Positions 27,983 to 37,509 of a DNA stretch of 64,000 nt are shown one piece after another. Below the pieces are notes generated by a model, which worked only from the letters and a program-made list of their open reading frames with translations, was not told the DNA's origin and searched no databases. Position 1 is the stretch's first letter. Each line of letters starts with the position of its first letter. Source of the stretch: an uncultured Bacteroidota bacterium (GTDB taxonomy: Bacteria; Bacteroidota; Bacteroidia; Bacteroidales; WCHB1-69); NCBI GenBank assembly GCA_902770735.1, contig CACXUB010000005.1, forward strand, positions 5,639 through 69,638, written 5' to 3'. Position numbers and translations under genes: made by a program.

Positions 27983-28672
27983 ATGGAAGAAAGTCACGAT
28001 AGGATTCGCATTATCGCCCGTATTCGCAGCGAGTTCCCGACGAAGTTCGGGATTCCGAGGCAGAGCGGGCTGGTGCCGTCGTTGCGGGCGCGCATCGTGT
28101 TTGAGCCGGAGTTCCGGAATGCCGAGGCATTGCGTGGCATTGAGGAGTTTTCCCATTTGTGGCTGATTTGGGGTTTTTCTGAGGTACAGCAGGAGGGCTG
28201 GTCGCCGACGGTGCGGCCTCCTCGACTCGGCGGCAACCGCCGTATGGGCGTCTTCGCCACGCGCTCGCCGTTCCGGCCCAATCCCATCGGGCTCTCCTGC
28301 GTGGAGCTCATCGAGGCCGACTTCAATCCCAAAAATCCGACCCTCCTCGTAGGTGGCGCTGACCTTATGGATGGCACCCCCATCTACGACATCAAACCCT
28401 ATCTGCTCACCACCGACTGCCATCCGGAAGCCACCAAAGGGTTCACGCAAGAGCACGAGAACTACCAGCTTGAGGTGGAGATTCCCGAAGCTATTGCCAA
28501 GAGGCTGAAACCCGAAAAGTTGGAGAAGTTGCGGGAGGTGTTGGCGCAAGACCCGCGCCCCGCCTACCACCACGACGAAGACCGGGTTTATGGGTTTCCG
28601 TTTGACGGGTACGAAGTGAAGTTTCAGGTGGTGGATAAAACGGCCGTGGTGCGCGAGATTCGCCGCAGGTGA
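27983..28672 (+). CDS. trmO: tRNA (N6-threonylcarbamoyladenosine37-N6)-methyltransferase TrmO (TsaA/YaeB family)
   Basis: FPTKFGIPRQSGLV, FSHLWLIWGF, GVFATRSPFRPNPIGLS, DGTPIYDIKPY. Confidence 0.85.
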   Translation: MEESHDRIRIIARIRSEFPTKFGIPRQSGLVPSLRARIVFEPEFRNAEALRGIEEFSHLWLIWGFSEVQQEGWSPTVRPPRLGGNRRMGVFATRSPFRPNPIGLSCVELIEADFNPKNPTLLVGGADLMDGTPIYDIKPYLLTTDCHPEATKGFTQEHENYQLEVEIPEAIAKRLKPEKLEKLREVLAQDPRPAYHHDEDRVYGFPFDGYEVKFQVVDKTAVVREIRRR

Positions 28673-28679
28673 GAGTTGT

Positions 28680-29255
28680 TCAGGGATTCTTTATACAGAT
28701 TTTCGTCAACCCTCCCTTTTTGCCCATCACGAAGAGGGCGTTTTCTTCATTCGGTTCGGGGATGTGGACAAAAAGAGGCTCGTGCAGGGTGAACTGGTCG
28801 CAAAGGAACACTTCTCCCTGTTTCAATTTGGCATTTTCAGACGTCAGGATCACAAAACGTTGGTCACCTTGAAAAGCGGCGACACAGCGGCGGTTGGGGT
28901 TCCAGAAGAACTCCACCTGTGCACCCACAGGGAGGTTTTCCGCATACAAGGTTTCGCTCTTCACGCGGTGCGACGATTGCACACTTTCCACCTCGCAGTA
29001 GTCTGACACGAAGGTCTCCCAGTCGGGGAAACCGGTGAAGCGGGCGAGAATGTCGAGGGTGCTGGAGCGCACCGAGGCATAGCCATCCACATAGCCCCAG
29101 AGCCGCTTCAGCGTGGAAACGCTGAGGTTCTCATTCAGCCGTCCCCGAATCTCTCCCGACAGGAAGATGAAGTCGTTGGAGGTTTCAATACGGTGATCCG
29201 CCGACTCCTCCACGAGTTGGCGCAGCAGGGTGATATGTTGCAGATTAACAGGCAT
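28680..29255 (-). CDS. hypothetical protein (HTH-like N-terminal segment, beta-rich C-terminal half)
   Basis: 191 aa, ATG start, own -7 box 21 nt upstream. The LSVSTLKRLWGY segment resembles an HTH recognition region. No family recognised. Confidence 0.55.
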   Translation of the reverse strand: MPVNLQHITLLRQLVEESADHRIETSNDFIFLSGEIRGRLNENLSVSTLKRLWGYVDGYASVRSSTLDILARFTGFPDWETFVSDYCEVESVQSSHRVKSETLYAENLPVGAQVEFFWNPNRRCVAAFQGDQRFVILTSENAKLKQGEVFLCDQFTLHEPLFVHIPEPNEENALFVMGKKGGLTKICIKNP

Positions 29256-29275
29256 GTTCGTTCAAATTGCAGGCG

Positions 29276-29283
29276 CAAAAATA
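29276..29283 (-). promoter_or_regulatory. -7 box TATTTTTG for 28680..29255
   Basis: Exact match on the minus strand, 21 nt upstream of the start. Adjacent ATTCGAAT palindrome at 29289-29296. Confidence 0.6.
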
Positions 29284-29341
29284 GCAAACATTCGAATATG
29301 CGGAGCAGGTTCTTTTTCGGTTCTTTTTGCTGTTGGATTTA

Positions 29342-31060
29342 TTATTTGGGAACATCTTGTACGAGGCGGACACTCATTCCGTAAAGTCGATAAGTGTAGC
29401 TTTTGGGATCCACGCCTACTTCGCTAAACGCCCAGTCGTATGCACAAGCGTTGTTATAAGCGGTTGAACACCAATAATGTCCAGTCCCAGGAATCCATTC
29501 CAAACCACCTCGAGCACCCGCCTCGGGAAGGAACACGGCACCGGCATCTTCCATCTTTTTCCATTGTGACACACTATAGTTGATCGTGTATTTTGCCGTG
29601 TCAATGTTGATTTTTTCCGGCAAAGCGATGTCGTCGGGATGTTGGTATTGGTCTGGAAAAAGAACAAGGCCTAGCACACCGTTCACAATGGCTTTGACAA
29701 AACGTGCGTTTGGAATGCCTTTCACCGTCGAGGCGTTCCTTGTCTGGCACAAATAGACAGCTTCGTCTTTTGTCAGCGTACGCCATCGTCCGGGCATGTT
29801 TCCTCCGTTGGATATGGCGTTATAGATACCCCAGTCAGCGAAAGCGAAAGAGTCGGTGAGAGAATTTTCCCATTTGCCGCCAGGATAGTACCCTATGTTC
29901 TCAATAGCCCACGAATAGGGCTCATAACTCACCGTACCGCTGTTCCAACCGCTCGTTCCGAAGCCGAAATGGTCGATCCAGTCTTCATAATGGGGGGAAA
30001 TGTTGGCATTTGACATCCCAATGAAGTCATACTGGTTTTCAGCGAAACGCCACGTGCCTTGGGCAATGCCATCGGCGGTGCGATGCTTGCCGGCGGCGCT
30101 ATATTGAAGGTTGCCTTGCGAGAAGCGCACTTGTTTGTCCGGAGCCACGGAGAACACGCCATTTAATGCGCCCGCCAACGGTGAAGAGTCGTCAACGGCA
30201 TGGCGTATCCTATATTCTTCTATTTTGTTGGATATAAATGAGATAGGATGAAGAAACGCACATAACAGTCCAATCAAGATCAATGCCGCCCCTGCAATGA
30301 AAGGCATAGATTTGCGTTTGCAATCTGTTTTTTCAATATTGTGAAGGACTTCTTCAGCAAGCGGGTATCGTTTTTCTTTCTGAGGTTGGAGACATTTGCG
30401 CACTACATTGCCGTAGCGTGTAGGAAACAGTTGCTTCAGAATCAGTCCGAAGGCGTAGAGGTCGGTGCGGTTATCAATCTCGCCGTTGCTTAATTGTTCC
30501 GGGGCGGCGTACGATTGGGTGTAGGCGGGCTCCTTGAGGATGGTGAACGAACGGCTATCGGCAAAGCCGAAGTCGATGATTTTCACGTGGTTTCCATCGT
30601 TTGTAATCAGAATATTGGAGGGCTTCAGATCTTGGTGCACGACTTGTTTCCGGTGATAATAGGCCATTGCCTCAAGCAGTTCCTGCACGATTTGCCGCCG
30701 TACCGTTTCCGATGGGTTCTTCTGCAAGAACTCGTCTAACGTACATCCGTCCACGTATTCCATTACGATGCAGTCGCCGACCTCAGGGTCCTGCTCGATG
30801 ATGAGGGCGCGAACGATGTTGGGATGGGTCAGATTCACCATCAGGGAAAACTCTTTAGAAATCATCGCCGTGTATTGCGGGTCGGCGGCGTACTCCGGTT
30901 TGAGGCCTTTCAGTATGTACTTTTGGCCATATCGTTGTGCACAGAACAGGCGGGAGTAGCCGTTGGAGGGCAGCTCCATATAATCGGTGAAGCGGTTGGA
31001 AACGTTCACGTTCTGCGCCGAGACCGGTCCTGAAGAGGATATGTCGTTGTTGAATTTCAT
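29342..31060 (-). CDS. transmembrane Hanks-type Ser/Thr protein kinase (non-RD) with extracytoplasmic lectin-like domain
   Basis: Catalytic loop VHQDLKPSN (Q replaces the R of HRD), DFGFA, YAAPE. One TM helix (IAGAALILIGLLCAFLHPI, encoded ~30233-30307). Ectodomain contains GNLQY...WRFAENQYDFIG...WRTLTKDEAVYL...YWCST...YGMSVRLVQD. The track start at 31084 is TTG; I prefer ATG 31060. Confidence 0.88.
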   Translation of the reverse strand: MKFNNDISSSGPVSAQNVNVSNRFTDYMELPSNGYSRLFCAQRYGQKYILKGLKPEYAADPQYTAMISKEFSLMVNLTHPNIVRALIIEQDPEVGDCIVMEYVDGCTLDEFLQKNPSETVRRQIVQELLEAMAYYHRKQVVHQDLKPSNILITNDGNHVKIIDFGFADSRSFTILKEPAYTQSYAAPEQLSNGEIDNRTDLYAFGLILKQLFPTRYGNVVRKCLQPQKEKRYPLAEEVLHNIEKTDCKRKSMPFIAGAALILIGLLCAFLHPISFISNKIEEYRIRHAVDDSSPLAGALNGVFSVAPDKQVRFSQGNLQYSAAGKHRTADGIAQGTWRFAENQYDFIGMSNANISPHYEDWIDHFGFGTSGWNSGTVSYEPYSWAIENIGYYPGGKWENSLTDSFAFADWGIYNAISNGGNMPGRWRTLTKDEAVYLCQTRNASTVKGIPNARFVKAIVNGVLGLVLFPDQYQHPDDIALPEKINIDTAKYTINYSVSQWKKMEDAGAVFLPEAGARGGLEWIPGTGHYWCSTAYNNACAYDWAFSEVGVDPKSYTYRLYGMSVRLVQDVPK

Positions 31061-31080
31061 TCCGTGGTAAAAGGCTTTAT

Positions 31081-32202
31081 TCAATCCATGTTCTGCAAAT
31101 ACTCCGACAGATAGGGTACGGCAAACACCAACTCTCCACGACGGGGGGATTCGATAACTCCCGCCTCTATGAGACGCTTGCGATAAGGCTGTATGGCCGG
31201 ACCCTTCCGTCCAAGCTTGGACTGAAGCCTGCTGGTGGTCGCCGGCTCACCGCAGTGAGCAAGTGCCTTAAGGAATACCTTGTCATTGTCTGACAGCGAA
31301 TTCAGTATCGGCTTGAAGACGTTGTCATCCATATCAGCCAAGGCAGCCTTCTTCGCCTTGTCCATAATCTCGTCAGTAACAACGCCATCTTTCGGAGTGT
31401 ATTGAATCATATAGTAGCCAATCAATTGCATGAGATATGGGAAGCCGCGGGTTGAAAGTGCCGCACGGTCGAGTATATCGTCCGAGACCTTTATCTTGAT
31501 TGACTTGAAGGCACGCTCATAATAGGCTCTGATCAAGTTGGTCGATAACGGTCCCAATTCCACTTTGACGGCACGGTTCAGAAAGGTGAGCACACTGTCG
31601 TTAAGTAAATTGGAAATGGAATATGGCAGTCCCGCCATTGCTATCGCAATGTCCTTCCGATCGCCAATCAGTTCCTGATAAGCGGCAGCCACCTCGCGCA
31701 TGGCTGTCGAAGTGCGCACTTCGTCTATGAGGATAAGTGCCCCTTTACCCTTTTCTGCCAACTTATCGCATAGCAATGACATTTTCGAGCGAAATCCATA
31801 TTGCCGTTCTGCTGCTTCTGAAAAAGTCAGACCAAATGAAAACCCGAGCGCACCGGCGGTCACACCCGACAACTTCTTTTTTTCGTCATCGAAGTATTTC
31901 GAACCATTCAGTTGTAATTGCTCGATGATGGCTTTCGGCATCCCCTCGTGAGCCGTCACGCGGGCAACAACGTACCCCTCTTTCTGCGCACGGTCGTTGA
32001 GTTCAAGCAACAGGGCTGTCTTGCCCATGCCTCGTTGTCCGAGAAACAACGTGCAGCGGTTGCGCGACCCTACAGGCTCTTTCAGTCCCGCCATAAACTG
32101 TTCAATCACGCCATCGCGACCGATATATTGCATCGGACGGTTACCGAATGTAGGCTGAAACAGTTTCTGAGCACTTTCATAAAAATCCTCTTTCTTTCTC
32201 AT
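31081..32202 (-). CDS. AAA+ ATPase (Arch_ATPase/ORC-Cdc6-like) with C-terminal winged-helix domain
   Basis: Walker A GQRGMGKTAL and Walker B ALILIDEV. C-terminal wHTH-like LSDNDKVFLKALAHCGEPATTSRLQSKLGRKGPAIQPYRKRLIEAGVIES. Its stop is 0-20 nt from the kinase start, suggesting an operon. Confidence 0.8.
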   Translation of the reverse strand: MRKKEDFYESAQKLFQPTFGNRPMQYIGRDGVIEQFMAGLKEPVGSRNRCTLFLGQRGMGKTALLLELNDRAQKEGYVVARVTAHEGMPKAIIEQLQLNGSKYFDDEKKKLSGVTAGALGFSFGLTFSEAAERQYGFRSKMSLLCDKLAEKGKGALILIDEVRTSTAMREVAAAYQELIGDRKDIAIAMAGLPYSISNLLNDSVLTFLNRAVKVELGPLSTNLIRAYYERAFKSIKIKVSDDILDRAALSTRGFPYLMQLIGYYMIQYTPKDGVVTDEIMDKAKKAALADMDDNVFKPILNSLSDNDKVFLKALAHCGEPATTSRLQSKLGRKGPAIQPYRKRLIEAGVIESPRRGELVFAVPYLSEYLQNMD

Positions 32203-32206
32203 TTAC

Positions 32207-32262
32207 TTTGTTTTATTCTTCTTTATTCTCTTTTATTCTTCTTTATTTTCCTTTATTCTTTT
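32207..32262. repeat. tandem ~9-10-bp repeat TTCTTTATT(C/T) x~6 (purine-rich AAGAATAAA on the transcribed minus strand)
   Basis: Read directly. Forms most of the 5' leader of the ATPase gene. Confidence 0.85.
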
Positions 32263-32269
32263 TCGGATG

Positions 32270-32277
32270 CAAAAATA
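32270..32277 (-). promoter_or_regulatory. -7 box TATTTTTG for the ATPase-kinase operon
   Basis: Exact match on the minus strand, 68 nt upstream of start 32202. The leader consists of a purine-rich tandem repeat. Confidence 0.55.
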
Positions 32278-32333
32278 TAAAAAAGAACGACATGTACATG
32301 CAAAATGGCTTCCCTGTATCTGATTATTTTTCT

Positions 32334-32341
32334 TATCTTTG
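32334..32341 (+). promoter_or_regulatory. -7 box TATCTTTG preceding the structured-RNA candidate
   Basis: Exact match with no protein start nearby. The nested hairpin begins ~12 nt downstream. Confidence 0.45.
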
Positions 32342-32346
32342 CAAGT

Positions 32347-32487
32347 TCGAAACCTGGAAAATTTCAAATGCAATGCCGAGAGGAATCCGAAGATGCTTGC
32401 GGTTCACAGCCGTGAGCTTTCTTTGTTTGGCATTGCAGGTTTTTCCAGGACCTCGGACTCGAAACAATGAAGTTCGCGGTTTTTTTA
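32347..32487 (+). ncRNA. candidate structured small RNA in the divergent intergenic region of the accessory island
   Basis: Own -7 box at 32334-32341. Three nested stems: 32353-32361/32441-32449 (9 bp), 32369-32377/32429-32437 (9 bp), 32395-32402/32410-32417 (8 bp, including two G·U pairs valid only on the + strand). A T7 run at 32480-32486 follows a weak hairpin. Confidence 0.35.
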
Positions 32488-32561
32488 TGCCCTTTTAGAA
32501 AGACTTCGGAAGGCGAGAAAAAGAACCAGAAAAGAACCTAACTGCATGAAAATGAATGTGG

Positions 32562-32569
32562 TATTTTTG
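32562..32569 (+). promoter_or_regulatory. -7 box TATTTTTG for the 1006-aa FISH-domain protein
   Basis: Exact match, 22 nt upstream of ATG 32591. Confidence 0.65.
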
Positions 32570-32590
32570 CAAAATAAAAAATCAAAAGAT

Positions 32591-35500
32591 ATGAATAAGA
32601 GAAAACTTACATTCACAACAATGTTGCTGCTGACCATAGCCTTCGCAATGGCACAAAAACAAACGGGAACTCCTTGTCCAACTTCAGTTTCAGACTATGA
32701 CGGGAATACTTACAATGTGGTTCGGATAGGCGATTTATGTTGGATGAGGGAGAATTTACGTTCTACCCACTATGCCGATGGAACAAGTGTCGATTTTGAA
32801 AGAACAGAAAGTACTATCACAGGATTCTTATATGCTTGGAATGTTGCCAAAGGAATAGAACGAGGCAAACAGGGGGTTTGTCCAGATGGATGGTACTTGC
32901 CCAGCGATTGGGAATGGCAACAAATGGAGATTGCGTCTGGTGCCGTTGACAAAGCATCGGCAAATAAAATGAATAATAGAGGAAACTATGCCTATAAGCT
33001 TTGCAGCAATATAAAAAACGTATGGTCAGAAGGATATTCTAGTAGTTACTATTCAAGCAATCCCTATTATCCTGACGGAAAATGTAATACATCTGGTTTT
33101 AGTGCTTTACCAAATGAAGATGTTGTTTTTTTAGGTGTTATCGTAGGGAAGTGTACAAATTTCTGGACTGCCACAGAATTTGACAAAGACCATGCGCTCA
33201 CTCGACATCTTGAAAACAACAGCAACTCAATTTCTCGAAAAAAAGAAAAAAAATGGAATGCCTATTCTGTGAGATGTGTCTATGGGGCCGAAAATCAAGA
33301 ACAATACGAAGTGGAACGGAATGCAATCTCTGAAGAATCGACCGTAAATCAAATAGACAAACCAATACCAAGCGCTAATACAAACGACAAAGAAATTGAC
33401 ACTACTATATATAAGGTGTATGAAGCGGCAGACACAAGCGATACGTTAGCTATTTATGACAATGGCGATGTCTTGCATAAACTATGGTTGTCATCCATAA
33501 ATAAAAATATTGTCGGTGCTCTAATAAGTCAGCCTGACGGGAGGATTTATCGAGGTTTCTTATACTTAAGAAATGTTAATGAGCCGACAGATATACTGGC
33601 CCGTAAGTCGATAGACTGTCAACATTTGTTAGGTGCATACGAAGTGGGAGATTGGCTTGTAAATGTTGTGTATGCCGATAGCAGTGAGTGGGGGCCGATA
33701 ACGAAGACATGGGAATGTCCTAATTGGCGAAAATCTTCCGATGAAGAAGAAAAATACAATAAAAATTTTTATCTCATTCAGCAGATGCAGGGTCTTAAAT
33801 ATTATTATAAAACCAGTATCACCTTTAATAAAGACGGTACAGGTTACCAGACTTTTACAGTCGCTCCAGAAATCATTGCACAGCAAATATACACTGGTTA
33901 CAGCAATGGAATGACCGGAATGAACAGGAAAACGGGAGGCAGTATTCGAGGTGGCTATAAGTTCACCATTAATGGAAACGCAAAAATTAAATTCAAATGG
34001 TTATATAATAGTGATATAGATGCTTTGGGAATAGAATACGATTCAAAACCCACAATAAACACTACCGCGGCAATGACAGACAAGTTTGAGAAAGTCTATT
34101 TCGCGAACCGTCAACAGCATATAGCACAGGCAAAGCAAGATATAGCAACCAATCCTGAAGTAAAAGAATGGAAAGAGAAGGTCGCGAATGCATTGAAATT
34201 TTTGGCCTATCAGGGGGGGTATCGTTTTTATGGGATAACATTTATTTCTAACCACACATTGAGGCTTGTGCCCAAGTGGTTAGAAGATGATGAGTTGATC
34301 CCTGGAGACGACTGGATTGATTTTTACTCAAAAGACAAAGAAAATTTCTTTATTCCAAGCATAGATGAATTAATGACCTTAACTGATACCAGCACGTTGA
34401 AGCAGTATGAAAGTGAGGAACAAAAGGCGGCTCGCATTGCAGAAGAGAAACGGATAGAGGAGGCGAAACGGATAGAGGAAGAAAAGCGCATCGCAGAAGA
34501 GAAGCGCATCGCGGAAGAAAAAAGAAAATCACAGGCATTATTGTCGACCACATCCTCTTATTGCACGTCGTTGTTTGAAAATCTGCAAAAGTGTATTTCA
34601 GAAAAAACGGGCTATTTTGATTTTTCTGCTTTGGATGAGAGTTTTTACGAGCACTTTGACTTTTCCACATTATTGTCCACGGAGGAAACCACTTCTGCAA
34701 ACAAAGAATCAGTTCTGAATCGAAAATTGTACGCGTGGTTTCCTGTGTCCAACTACAGCCTTGATTCTGCTTTCCTTGTACCCAATGGAGAAGTATGTGT
34801 TATAAGCACACTTAACCGTAAAGAGTCGCCAAAGAATGTGTTTGACACCTATTTGACTTTACGGTTGCCGTTTGCAAACAACTCCACCATATTGATTGAT
34901 TCCATCTCATATAAAACCCAGCTGTGGCAGGATAATTCAGAGAAAAAATATGATATGAGAGAACAAATGATGATAAAAGACCAACTTCTTCTTGGCAAAT
35001 ACAAAAAAATCGCGCCATTTGTCGTGAAAGCCTATTTGAATTATCAAAAGAAAAATCAAATTACCATAAAGAAGCACTACCAGCAATCTGATCCGAATAT
35101 CCGACTGTTTACCATGTACCAAAATCTATATTTGGCCATTGCAAATCTGCGTGAGCACTCTATTGAGAAACAGAAATTCATAAGCACTTATGCCGGTAAA
35201 ACACATGCGGATGTTGTAAAAGTATTGGAATCGTTCATGAAGCAAAAACAAAGTGAATTGTTGCCGGAGAAAGAGATCCAAGATTTGCTCGGGGTTTTGG
35301 GTGTGATTTCAGATACGGAAGAAGAATGTTTGGATTTTCTGATGAATAGGAGAATCGTAGAGGAAAACCATCAGCAGATCAGCTCGAAAAAGAAGACGTG
35401 CAAATATATCGTTGATGCTTACGAAAAACATTTTAAATCGCTTGATCAATCATGGAATCCCTCTGAAAAAAACGATAAATTGGCAGGAGAAAGGGAATTG

Positions 35501-35611
35501 CAATGTAAGGTTCTGTCACTAATCAATAGCACTAATGCATCTGAATTGAATGCTAAAGCCAAACAGATGAAGAAAGAAAGTATTGAAGTAATGATAGAAC
35601 GGTTGAAATAG
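32591..35611 (+). CDS. large secreted protein: N-terminal Fibrobacter-succinogenes-major-paralogous (FISH/TIGR02145-like) domain plus ~750 aa of unknown, partly coiled-coil sequence
   Basis: Signal peptide MNKRKLTFTTMLLLTIAFAMAQ. DGNTYNVVRIGDLCWMRENL...CPDGWYLPSDWEWQQM...SGFSALP...FWTATE...YSVRCVYG. EEKRI tandem repeat present. AT-rich. Start set to ATG 32591, 22 nt after the -7 box. Confidence 0.8.
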   Translation: MNKRKLTFTTMLLLTIAFAMAQKQTGTPCPTSVSDYDGNTYNVVRIGDLCWMRENLRSTHYADGTSVDFERTESTITGFLYAWNVAKGIERGKQGVCPDGWYLPSDWEWQQMEIASGAVDKASANKMNNRGNYAYKLCSNIKNVWSEGYSSSYYSSNPYYPDGKCNTSGFSALPNEDVVFLGVIVGKCTNFWTATEFDKDHALTRHLENNSNSISRKKEKKWNAYSVRCVYGAENQEQYEVERNAISEESTVNQIDKPIPSANTNDKEIDTTIYKVYEAADTSDTLAIYDNGDVLHKLWLSSINKNIVGALISQPDGRIYRGFLYLRNVNEPTDILARKSIDCQHLLGAYEVGDWLVNVVYADSSEWGPITKTWECPNWRKSSDEEEKYNKNFYLIQQMQGLKYYYKTSITFNKDGTGYQTFTVAPEIIAQQIYTGYSNGMTGMNRKTGGSIRGGYKFTINGNAKIKFKWLYNSDIDALGIEYDSKPTINTTAAMTDKFEKVYFANRQQHIAQAKQDIATNPEVKEWKEKVANALKFLAYQGGYRFYGITFISNHTLRLVPKWLEDDELIPGDDWIDFYSKDKENFFIPSIDELMTLTDTSTLKQYESEEQKAARIAEEKRIEEAKRIEEEKRIAEEKRIAEEKRKSQALLSTTSSYCTSLFENLQKCISEKTGYFDFSALDESFYEHFDFSTLLSTEETTSANKESVLNRKLYAWFPVSNYSLDSAFLVPNGEVCVISTLNRKESPKNVFDTYLTLRLPFANNSTILIDSISYKTQLWQDNSEKKYDMREQMMIKDQLLLGKYKKIAPFVVKAYLNYQKKNQITIKKHYQQSDPNIRLFTMYQNLYLAIANLREHSIEKQKFISTYAGKTHADVVKVLESFMKQKQSELLPEKEIQDLLGVLGVISDTEEECLDFLMNRRIVEENHQQISSKKKTCKYIVDAYEKHFKSLDQSWNPSEKNDKLAGERELQCKVLSLINSTNASELNAKAKQMKKESIEVMIERLK
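34430..34527 (+). repeat. in-frame 15-bp tandem repeat encoding (A/E)EKRI(A/E)E x~6
   Basis: Encodes AARIAEEKRIEEAKRIEEEKRIAEEKRIAEEKRKS within CDS 32591..35611. Confidence 0.9.
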
Positions 35612-35677
35612 TATTAATAAAAAAACGAGAAAGCCGATTCGCGTGAAAGGAAGTAGGCAGATAAAAAAATATTTATT

Positions 35678-36295
35678 ATGGGATTTTTAAGTAATATGGC
35701 CGATGAGGCTGGGAAAAAAACAGGTAAGGCAATTGGTAACAAATTATTTGGCAGATATGCTGACGATGTACGAATTGGTTACGGAGAAATTGATGATAAC
35801 GGAGCCTCTTCTGCAAAAGCAGAAGTAAAAATAGCGAAAATCGAGGCTAAAGAAAGAAAAAAAGAACTAAAACTGAAAGAGAAATTTAAAGTAAAAGATA
35901 ATCTTCGTCAACAAATCGCTGAAATACAATCTATCTCTTTTGATACACAAAGTGTTAAAGCTAATATCAATGTTTTAATGCAACTGTCTTCAATCATCGA
36001 AAGTATTGACGAGGACGACATCGGTTCTTCTTGGGATGATGATGAAAATACCCTGCAACAGAAACTTTTGGATTCTGCTGAATCTAAATTAAAGATGGGT
36101 ATTAATCTTTGTAAAGCAATTGACCCAACTGATCCCACCATCACCATGTTTGAAAATGTGATAAAAGAGAAGCAAGAAGTGGCGGAAGAGAAAAAGAGAG
36201 AAGAAAAAAAGAATGACAAACTTGGATTTGGGCTTTTCTTTGGTTCAATTGGACTTATATTATTGATAGCAATCCTTGCATGGATATTTGGATAG
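35678..36295 (+). CDS. hypothetical tail-anchored coiled-coil protein
   Basis: 205 aa, charged/helical (KIAKIEAKERKKELKLKEKFK; QEVAEEKKREEKKNDK), with a single C-terminal TM helix LGFGLFFGSIGLILLIAILAWIFG. AT-rich like the upstream gene. Confidence 0.6.
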   Translation: MGFLSNMADEAGKKTGKAIGNKLFGRYADDVRIGYGEIDDNGASSAKAEVKIAKIEAKERKKELKLKEKFKVKDNLRQQIAEIQSISFDTQSVKANINVLMQLSSIIESIDEDDIGSSWDDDENTLQQKLLDSAESKLKMGINLCKAIDPTDPTITMFENVIKEKQEVAEEKKREEKKNDKLGFGLFFGSIGLILLIAILAWIFG

Positions 36296-36465
36296 TATTA
36301 TATATTTGAATGCTAATGTAATAAAGACCATACAAGATTTGCAAGATTAGGGTAAAGAATAGTTTGTGAAAATAAGGTGTTTAGCGTCCACGGCTTCCTC
36401 CAACGCGAGGTGCGGGAAATGAAACAGCTGGCAGCGGAAAGACAATAGTGCACCGTCCCTCCGAA

Positions 36466-36498
36466 ACTACCAACTACTAACTACTAACTACTAACTCC
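36466..36498 (-). repeat. tandem heptamers (minus strand TTAGTAG x3, TTGGTAG) directly after the GT9 stop
   Basis: Plus strand reads ACTACCA ACTACTA ACTACTA ACTACTA ACTCC. The stop (cta) is at 36499-36501. Confidence 0.9.
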
Positions 36499-37509
36499 CT
36501 AAAACCTATTCACCCACTCCGCCACCTCCGTCGCGGAGATGTTCTTCATGCACTTGAAATGCTTGCGGCGGCACTTGGAGCTGCCGAACTTGGAGCACGG
36601 ACGGCAATGGAGCGGACAAACTTCGAAATTGCGGAACAAATTCCGTTCGCCGGGCATATAAGGGTAGTAACCGTATTCGGGAATGGTGGAGCCGAAGATG
36701 GCTGCCGTGGGCTTGTGCAGCGCCGCTGAGATGTGCATCAGGCCGGTGTCGCCGGTGATCACGCAGTCGGCATGCTGCAGGATGGCCGCCGACTGGTAAA
36801 GGGTGTATTTGCCGCAGCCGTTGGTGGCCCGCTCGCCGAGCTGGGAAACCACCTGCTCGCCCTCTTCGAACACGTCCTTGCCGCCTAACAGCATGATCGG
36901 TTTGTGCAGGATGCTGCCGATCTCCACCACCTTGCTCACCGGAATCCGCTTGGTGAAGTGCTGCGCCGCCAACACGATGGCTACGAAGCCGTCTTCAAAC
37001 ATCATCGGCAAATCATCTTCTTCAAATCCTTGGTCTTCAGGAATATAGAATTCCAACCCTTTGTGGTCGTTGTGAACGTTCAAAGCCTTGACGGCCTCGA
37101 AATAACGTTCCACGATGTGCGTTTCGGGCATGCCGTTCATCTTGAGACGATAGCAAATCCATTTCGACAAATTGTGCTTGTTGAAAGTGTAGGAAGGGCA
37201 TTTCAGCTTGCGCACCACCTTGCGGGAACGCATCGTCTTCTGCAAGTCAACGACCACGTCGAAATGCTCTCTTTTCAGCTCTTCGATGGTTTGGTTCACG
37301 TTGTCAGGATCGTAAGCATGCACTTTGTGGATGTGCGGATTGTTCGCAATCACAGAGACATAATCTTTTCTGACCAAAAAATGCACTTCTGCTTCGGGGA
37401 TTTGTTCGTTCACCGCTCTGATAACCGGAGTGGTTAACACGATGTCTCCAATGGAACTAAGTCGGATAATGAGGATTTTCGGTTGCGACGGGGGTTGTAT
37501 TTCGTCCAT
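36499..37509 (-). CDS. glycosyltransferase family 9 (LPS heptosyltransferase-like)
   Basis: KILIIRLSSIGDIVLTTPVIRAV N-terminus and C-terminal GDTGLMHISAAL motif, typical of GT9. Confidence 0.85.
   Translation of the reverse strand: MDEIQPPSQPKILIIRLSSIGDIVLTTPVIRAVNEQIPEAEVHFLVRKDYVSVIANNPHIHKVHAYDPDNVNQTIEELKREHFDVVVDLQKTMRSRKVVRKLKCPSYTFNKHNLSKWICYRLKMNGMPETHIVERYFEAVKALNVHNDHKGLEFYIPEDQGFEEDDLPMMFEDGFVAIVLAAQHFTKRIPVSKVVEIGSILHKPIMLLGGKDVFEEGEQVVSQLGERATNGCGKYTLYQSAAILQHADCVITGDTGLMHISAALHKPTAAIFGSTIPEYGYYPYMPGERNLFRNFEVCPLHCRPCSKFGSSKCRRKHFKCMKNISATEVAEWVNRF

Follow-up and report, generated by a model that had tools for sequence, protein, structure and literature searches.

The 64-kb window analysed here (the whole stretch of DNA under study, from contig CACXUB010000005.1 of an uncultured Bacteroidales bacterium) carries a gene for a receptor-type Hanks Ser/Thr kinase and a gene for a large exported protein, each with a lectin-like module. 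The kinase open reading frame (ORF; 580 amino acids (aa); 29342-31084, - strand; probable start Met9, at 31060) is preceded by a gene for a 373-aa P-loop ATPase (31081-32202, - strand). Since the ATPase stop codon falls ~20 nt from the kinase start, the two are taken as one operon with the ATPase gene first. Immediately downstream of the kinase comes its conserved partner g191, encoding a 191-aa protein without a named function (28680-29255, - strand). A divergent intergenic region (32203-32590) parts the operon from the large ORF and holds a conserved structured RNA-like element (32334-32490, + strand). Beyond it lie the gene for the 1006-aa exported protein (32591-35611, + strand) and that for a 205-aa coiled-coil protein anchored at its C terminus (35678-36295, + strand), the final gene of a low-GC cassette. 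A preliminary description of this DNA had the kinase and the 1006-aa protein divergently encoded across a promoter region; they do lie on opposite strands, but they are not neighbours, for the ATPase gene and the RNA-like element stand between them. The locus is, in our view, probably a regulatory module beside an array of swappable cassettes, not a matched pair of sensor and decoy, and the proximity of the kinase to the 1006-aa protein appears to reflect this locus architecture.

The element is ~150-155 nt long and almost invariant in related loci, whose flanking coding DNA is just 70-90% identical. It starts with a Bacteroidetes-type -7 box, TATCTTTG (32334-32341; the Bacteroidetes -7 consensus is TAnnTTTG), continues with a hairpin of ~100 nt (minimum free energy -57.4 kcal/mol, z = -4.56) and ends in a stem with a U-run. 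A covariance model identified 41 copies in the fetched loci (L numbers denote loci and P numbers proteins), divergent copies included and often two or three per locus; they occur in the window, L005, L007-L012 and L080-L104, and each precedes a group of cassette genes. In an alignment fitted to the covariance model, a procedure that favours structure, compensatory changes were found in 28 of 48 pairs, and 95% of cells were paired versus 36-47% with slid partners. The slid controls, together with visibly different helices in L005, L099 and L049, argue that the covariation signal is real, and many conserved G-U pairs argue that the structure is specific to the + strand and would form in RNA. A search of Rfam over 28000-37000 returned no family at E<=1, and the architecture differs from that of the FopS/GibS small RNAs (sRNAs; PMC11697453). 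We regard the element as a candidate structured RNA of a new kind, which could be a leader or an sRNA. Weak homologues (30-32 bits, E ~1e-6, structurally compensated) were found at L049:11815-11964, L051:11815-11942 and L052:18444-18593, where they adjoin paralogous kinases of other Bacteroidales (from horse faeces and other metagenome-assembled genomes), which suggests that the association of kinase and RNA is old.

Full-length orthologues of the kinase (64-73% identity; L007-L013) occur in seven GTDB genomes, all of uncultured rumen Bacteroidales; P0245 is also a full-length orthologue. Scanning metagenomes for a 27-mer that is invariant in the element added 25 loci, and removal of near-duplicates left 27 distinct ones. 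To the left of the element there is always g191 plus a kinase, either the kinase type of the window (here termed the ectodomain-kinase), a second type, kinase2, or both, and each of the 27 loci with this flank keeps the module together with the element. Kinase2, not found in the window, is a paralogue with a kinase domain 58-61% identical and a helical, non-lectin ectodomain; it lies between g191 or the ectodomain-kinase and the RNA element (L001:1314-2813, L005:1486-2754 and many of the loci L08x-L10x). To the right of the element there is a hypervariable mosaic of exported-protein genes, co-oriented on one strand, which differs even among close relatives, and synteny breakpoints flank the cassette on both sides. 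In the closest relative, L008, the ATPase and flanks are 90-96% identical in protein, and the position of the 1006-aa protein is taken by two others, an exported protein of 418 aa that carries a domain of the kinase ectodomain's family (37% identity) and an Ig-repeat protein of 1069 aa. The L007 cassette likewise has a protein of that domain family, again at 37% identity, and L103, where the kinase domain is 98% identical, carries yet another array. In the arrays of L001:3408-7942, L012, L098 and L103 the gene for the large protein is preceded by a recurring set of small membrane-protein genes, which code for a zinc-ribbon protein, a Band_7/SPFH+GYF_2 protein, a TM2-domain protein and small unknowns.

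In the kinase, the Pkinase domain (PF00069) spans residues 48-220 (E 1.5e-35, 123 bits). The catalytic motifs ILK, HQDLKPSN, DFG and AAPE (APE) are all present, which makes it a Hanks-type Ser/Thr kinase, of the non-RD type, with HQD replacing HRD. A single transmembrane (TM) helix follows at residues 260-284 (30233-30307), with KRK just before it. By this topology the C-terminal ~296 residues (29345-30232) should be extracytoplasmic, and in a diderm Bacteroidales cell that means periplasmic; the preliminary placement of the domain outside the cell is to be corrected to this extent.

Residues 304-580 (29345-30175, - strand) form the ectodomain module, which belongs to a large uncurated Bacteroidales family of ~275 aa. 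We found 2674 homologues at E<=1e-3, mostly Bacteroidales proteins of 290-520 aa and often with Big_2 domains, and elsewhere the module stands in 1-21 tandem copies in Bacteroidales envelope proteins of up to 7313 aa. An AlphaFold2 model of the ectodomain has a predicted local distance difference test score (pLDDT) of 94.7 and a predicted template modelling score of 0.92. Its N-terminal ~125 residues are a beta-rich addition with invariant motifs of their own (GNLQY, WRFA and GWGTSGW); only the C-terminal ~150 residues (residues ~431-580, 29345-29794, - strand) can be aligned to the Fibrobacter succinogenes major paralogous domain (FISUMP; PF09603/TIGR02145), and this half is the part that would be homologous to the C-type-lectin-like FISUMP/DUF1566 domains. 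The ectodomain matched no Pfam family even at E<=10 and no NCBIfam model other than the kinase at E<=0.1. Among 49 members of its family, the sole recurrent weak Pfam matches were Lcl_C/DUF1566 (PF07603; six members, best E 0.0014, all under the 34.9-bit gathering threshold) and Fib_succ_major (PF09603; one member, E 8.9e-6, 26.5 bits, below the 33.9 cut-off). No cysteine is invariant or nearly so in the family alignment. Some of the ectodomain-family proteins and some multi-FISUMP proteins (P0004, P0011, P0080, P0116 and others) have a precomputed match to PF26707, which may be a newer model for part of this family.

Fusions of this module to a kinase are rare, with two clusters at the level of 50%-identity representatives, P0245 (73% identical) and P0312 (43%). 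A sister kinase subfamily, its kinase domain 42-44% identical, has a true FISUMP ectodomain: the L026 kinase (L026:9926-11563) matches the full PF09603 profile above threshold (E 1.7e-34), and the kinase ORFs of L029, L031 and L033 match a FISUMP profile built in this analysis. This kinase family has thus recruited lectin-like sensors at least twice, as the ectodomain module and as true FISUMP, which supports a sensor role for the lectin-like domain. Among orthologues the ectodomain is 56-75% identical versus 75-81% for the kinase domain, so that the sensor part diverges faster. Capture of the ectodomain from a neighbouring cassette was considered and is unlikely, as unrelated members of the family are 50-53% identical to it and the neighbour's domain 37%.

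The large ORF on the + strand runs from 32546 to 35611 (1021 codons). Its most likely start is the ATG at 32591, which gives 1006 aa, since the signal peptide begins there, orthologues have 977-1012 aa and a second -7-like box, TATTTTTG, stands at 32562-32569 (+ strand), 22 nt upstream. This box lies in a conserved block after the RNA element and is likely the promoter of the large ORF. After the signal peptide the protein has a FISUMP head, a helical body and a C-terminal module. The head (32720-33280, + strand) matches curated models: residues 59-245 cover PF09603 in full (E 2.6e-20, 73.9 bits, cut-off 33.9), and TIGR02145 is passed as well (E 1.9e-24, 87.3 bits, cut-off 41.65). Four cysteines are invariant in the FISUMP alignment (C4, C25, C72 and C204) and the 1006-aa protein has them all; the AlphaFold2 model of the domain has a pLDDT of 83.3. 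Beyond the head come ~600 residues without an assigned domain, partly coiled-coil (34442-34528), and the C-terminal module of ~180 aa (35066-35608, + strand). The translation shows no lipobox, and Pfam gave no match to the C-terminal domain of the type IX secretion system.

Orthologues of this protein (P0121-P0128) are 59-67% identical to it. Their FISUMP heads are 48-56% identical versus 67-76% for the C-terminal part and rest; the head is the swappable, fast-evolving part. The C-terminal module recurs on cassette proteins with other heads, such as exported proteins of L103 (703 aa) and L082 (739 aa), both with MORN-like heads, and a 519-aa protein in L105 (L105:13169-14728) has its C-terminal ~160 residues in common with the large protein. 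The conserved link of the kinase locus may be to this C-terminal module rather than to the FISUMP head.

All the motifs from which the preliminary description had drawn its likeness of the two modules are present, in the kinase at 29750-29785 (WRTLTKDEAVYL), 29510-29545 (AGAVFLPEAGAR), 29462-29482 (GHYWCST) and 29354-29383 (YGMSVRLVQD), and in the large ORF at 32879-32926 (CPDGWYLPSDWEWQQM), 33092-33112 (SGFSALP), 33161-33178 (FWTATE) and 33263-33286 (YSVRCVYG). Pairwise BLASTP of the ectodomain against the FISUMP domain detected no similarity, the two being ~13% identical. We therefore compared profiles, one of the ectodomain family and one of the FISUMP domains from homologues of the large protein. 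Alignment of the two with hhalign gave a probability of 94.5% (E 7.5e-8, 142 columns, FISUMP profile positions 55-210), and a second profile-profile comparison gave 87.2% (E 3.8e-6, 128 columns, FISUMP profile positions 73-211); 16 controls (one reversed and 15 column-shuffled) reached at best 2.8% and E 0.016. The blocks paired are exactly the three landmark blocks proposed beforehand, namely PGRWRTLTKDEAVYL with PDGWYLPSDWEWQQM, AGAVFLPEAGAR...GHYWCST with SGFSALP...FWTATE, and YGMSVRLVQD with YSVRCVYG. The order of secondary-structure elements in the C-terminal half of the ectodomain matches that in the FISUMP model, and the register of the alignment is consistent.

Structure searches gave hints in the same direction. 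Against BFVD (viral structures), the top three Foldseek matches of the ectodomain model were two 'Fibrobacter succinogenes major paralogous domain' proteins (E 3.9e-3 and 0.048) and one DUF1566 protein, none at E<=1e-3. The FISUMP model searched against the PDB had as weak top matches the C-terminal domain (CTD) of Legionella Lcl, the CTD of Bd2740 and many C-type lectin-like domains, again none at E<=1e-3. Since the Foldseek matches are not significant (E > 1e-3), the fold identity rests mainly on the profile comparison. Sequence searches of the PDB with the ectodomain profile, the FISUMP domain and the C-terminal 759 aa of the large protein gave nothing useful. Judged from these comparisons, the two modules are very probably remote homologues within the C-type-lectin-like DUF1566/FISUMP superfamily. 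The preliminary label of FISH/TIGR02145-type module fits the 1006-aa protein and does not fit the kinase, whose ectodomain fails the curated models, lacks the FISUMP cysteines and is best described as a sister family of FISUMP inside the same superfamily. DUF1566 and Fib_succ_major have been treated as one C-type-lectin class among the targets of diversity-generating retroelements (DGRs), and the conserved FISUMP cysteines are thought to make extracytoplasmic disulfides (PMC5758913). Lcl-CTD is C-type-lectin-like and cysteine-free, and it binds sulphated glycosaminoglycans (GAGs; PMC11162425).

The preliminary description had asked whether kinases with this ectodomain are statistically linked to secreted FISH-domain proteins in other genomes. 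We looked up to 9 kb from the element for genes that encode a FISUMP or ectodomain-type domain, and such a gene is present in 15 of 20 distinct loci with enough flank versus one of 41 background loci (those of paralogous Bacteroidales kinases). The density is 1.09 versus 0.016 per 10 kb, a ~70-fold enrichment (Fisher P = 3e-9, uncorrected for relatedness). The association itself is therefore borne out, but it is as strong for kinases without a lectin-like sensor: lectin-like genes lie near the ectodomain-kinase in nine of 12 loci and in four of the five loci that have kinase2 only. An orthologue of the 1006-aa protein is found in just three of the 12 ectodomain-kinase loci, and also in L005, which has only the non-lectin kinase2. 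The four FISUMP-ectodomain kinases (L026, L029, L031 and L033) have no lectin-like neighbour within 10 kb, and neither has the distant ectodomain-kinase P0312 (L105), which keeps within 5 kb a homologue of g191 (35% identity, 3 kb from the kinase) and the 519-aa protein.

These distributions are what make a regulatory module beside a swappable array the probable picture, and the likeness of the ectodomain to its neighbour's head appears to come from how abundant and mobile this superfamily is in these genomes rather than from a shared ligand. How the module might work can be outlined as follows. The kinase would bind a glycan-like ligand in the periplasm or envelope through its lectin-like domain; the ligand-bound kinase would phosphorylate cytoplasmic partners, g191 and/or the ATPase; and these would tune transcription or read-through of the RNA-headed cassettes. 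In its widest form the proposal is that the kinase module (g191 with one or two Hanks kinases and, in some loci, the ATPase) and the structured RNA make up an undescribed control unit for a hypervariable, recombining array of head-swapped exported proteins in rumen and hindgut Bacteroidales. The shared bodies would carry heads of FISUMP, ectodomain or MORN-like type, each cassette group would have its own RNA leader, and the lectin-like kinase would switch the array in response to a glycan from the envelope or the diet. As a whole this is a tentative and rather unlikely proposal. Several points weigh against the overall picture given here. The link from kinase through g191 or ATPase to the RNA-headed cassettes is drawn from adjacency alone and, though possible, is doubtful; the ATPase is missing from about half of the loci, and the distant ectodomain-kinase locus L105 is without the RNA element. 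The related loci come from one rumen Bacteroidales lineage, so that the tallies given above are not phylogenetically independent. On the structural side, Foldseek against the PDB yielded no match at E<=1e-3 for either model, and the ectodomain search was uninformative.

One alternative is that there is no functional link at all, the region past the RNA element being a hot spot of recombination or insertion that collects abundant, fast-evolving envelope genes, with the kinase at its border. This would explain why cassette content varies between close relatives (the window versus L008 and L103), and it agrees with the G+C content of the cassette, which is 0.37-0.40 over 32-36 kb (the 1006-aa and 205-aa genes) versus ~0.50 in the flanks. 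Repeated copies of the element could act as recombination substrates, and both families, FISUMP and ectodomain, have expanded enormously in these bacteria. A mere hot spot would, however, not be expected to keep the g191/kinase module and the element together in 27 of 27 loci with flank, nor to place weak homologues of the element by paralogous kinases (L049, L051 and L052), nor to retain kinase, g191 and a C-terminal-module protein within 5 kb in L105. We consider this alternative rather unlikely. The low G+C content of 32-36 kb by itself fits either horizontal exchange of the cassette or a composition very rich in Lys, Asn and Glu.

The preliminary description had gone on to suggest that the ectodomain and the FISUMP head recognise the same ligand, with the 1006-aa protein as a decoy or co-receptor. 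The superfamily fold that the two domains probably share, judged from profile comparison, is in favour of this, as are the signal peptide and TM topology, which predict both domains in the same compartment, the enrichment of lectin-like genes beside these kinases, and the cassettes of L007 and L008, which hold the kinase's own domain family at 37% identity. Against it, the two domains are much diverged (~13% identity) and the partners are freely exchanged (the orthologue of the 1006-aa protein being in three of 12 loci, and with kinase2 only in L005), kinase and 1006-aa protein each occurring without the other; moreover, the enrichment is unrelated to ectodomain type, kinase2-only loci being equally enriched, and the FISUMP-kinases and the L105 kinase are without a lectin-like neighbour. 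A common ligand is improbable on this evidence, and nothing indicates a decoy or co-receptor role; we find no support for a matched pair of sensor and decoy, and this claim should be dropped. It is highly improbable that chance or composition alone makes the three blocks look alike in two unrelated folds, since the null BLASTP result, the failure of the ectodomain to match curated models and the Foldseek E values above 1e-3 are outweighed by profile E values of 7.5e-8 and 3.8e-6 that shuffled and reversed controls do not approach, by a consistent register and secondary-structure order, and by weak Pfam and BFVD matches that point to one superfamily.

Several known domains and systems offer comparisons. 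The C-terminal half of the ectodomain has the FISUMP helix block W-x-L-P/T...E-W, the strand block LP-x-G...YW-S-T and the terminal SVR-x-V; it differs from FISUMP in failing the models, in lacking the four conserved cysteines and in the extra ~125-aa beta-rich N-terminal half. DUF1566/Lcl-CTD (PF07603; PDB 8q4e) is, like the ectodomain, a cysteine-free bacterial C-type-lectin-like module, and in the ectodomain family it is the most frequent weak Pfam match, while the FISUMP model has it as its best match in the PDB, all sub-threshold; trimerisation and GAG binding are not in evidence for the window domains. The PASTA kinases (PknB/Stk1/PrkC) follow the same logic, with a Hanks kinase joined through a single TM helix to a ligand-binding domain outside the cytoplasm that senses an envelope glycan, but the window kinase has no PASTA repeats, its sensor is lectin-like and its host is diderm; NF033483 scored 130 bits against a cut-off of 450, with the kinase domain alone aligned. 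In the lectin receptor kinases of plants (C-, G- and L-type LecRLKs), an ectodomain of lectin fold is likewise joined by a single TM helix to a Ser/Thr kinase in the cytoplasm; they are an analogy only, being of independent origin and using another lectin family. In the polysaccharide utilization loci of Bacteroides, a membrane sensor (a hybrid two-component system or SusR) stands beside exported glycan-binding proteins that may be under its control; the window locus differs in having no SusC/D genes, another kinase class and variable cassettes that are not bound to one sensor type. We found no description in the literature of bacterial Hanks kinases with sensors of the FISUMP superfamily.

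Two other assignments were tried and rejected. The idea of a DGR target, prompted by FISUMP and DUF1566 being such targets (PMC5758913), was dropped as the 64-kb window has no template repeat of either domain's 3' end and no long YxDD ORF or reverse transcriptase. For an anti-phage kinase system (PADLOC mad6, PD-T4-6 and Stk2), the kinase domain alone matched; the ATPase, g191 and the cassette proteins had no meaningful matches.

Bacterial receptor Ser/Thr kinases are understood mainly for the PASTA-type sensors of Gram-positive bacteria. Receptor Ser/Thr kinases with extracytoplasmic sensors, plant lectin receptor kinases and the FISUMP/DUF1566 domains (of unknown or adhesive function) were already known; what is new is a Bacteroidales kinase family with predicted C-type-lectin-like periplasmic sensors, which are either true FISUMP or a large uncurated sister family. 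It links a hugely expanded and functionally unknown domain superfamily of the gut and rumen to signal transduction, and offers a handle for finding its ligands. The locus of RNA-headed variable cassettes is the more novel lead: if the RNA and the cassette array have a regulatory role, fibre-degrading gut bacteria would have in them a new means of both varying and controlling their envelope proteins.

Of the remaining genes, g191 adjoins the kinase in every related locus having enough sequence. Its family has 225 members, all unnamed and domain-free, and the window protein matched nothing in Pfam, NCBIfam or PADLOC; it is a candidate partner or substrate of the kinase. The ATPase has matches to AAA_16, ATPase_2 and AAA_22, all sub-threshold, and a sequence search of the PDB with it gave nothing useful. 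It is 93-95% identical in L008, L010, L013 and L098, and absent or degraded in L007, L009, L011 and L012. Homologues of the 205-aa protein are present in the cassette arrays of L099 and L102. Directly upstream of the ATPase start (- strand), five T-rich direct repeats (CTTTATTCTT-like) with 10-bp spacing occupy 32185-32263 of the window, and could be a phased A-tract or a regulatory repeat; this part of the intergenic region can also be aligned with L008.

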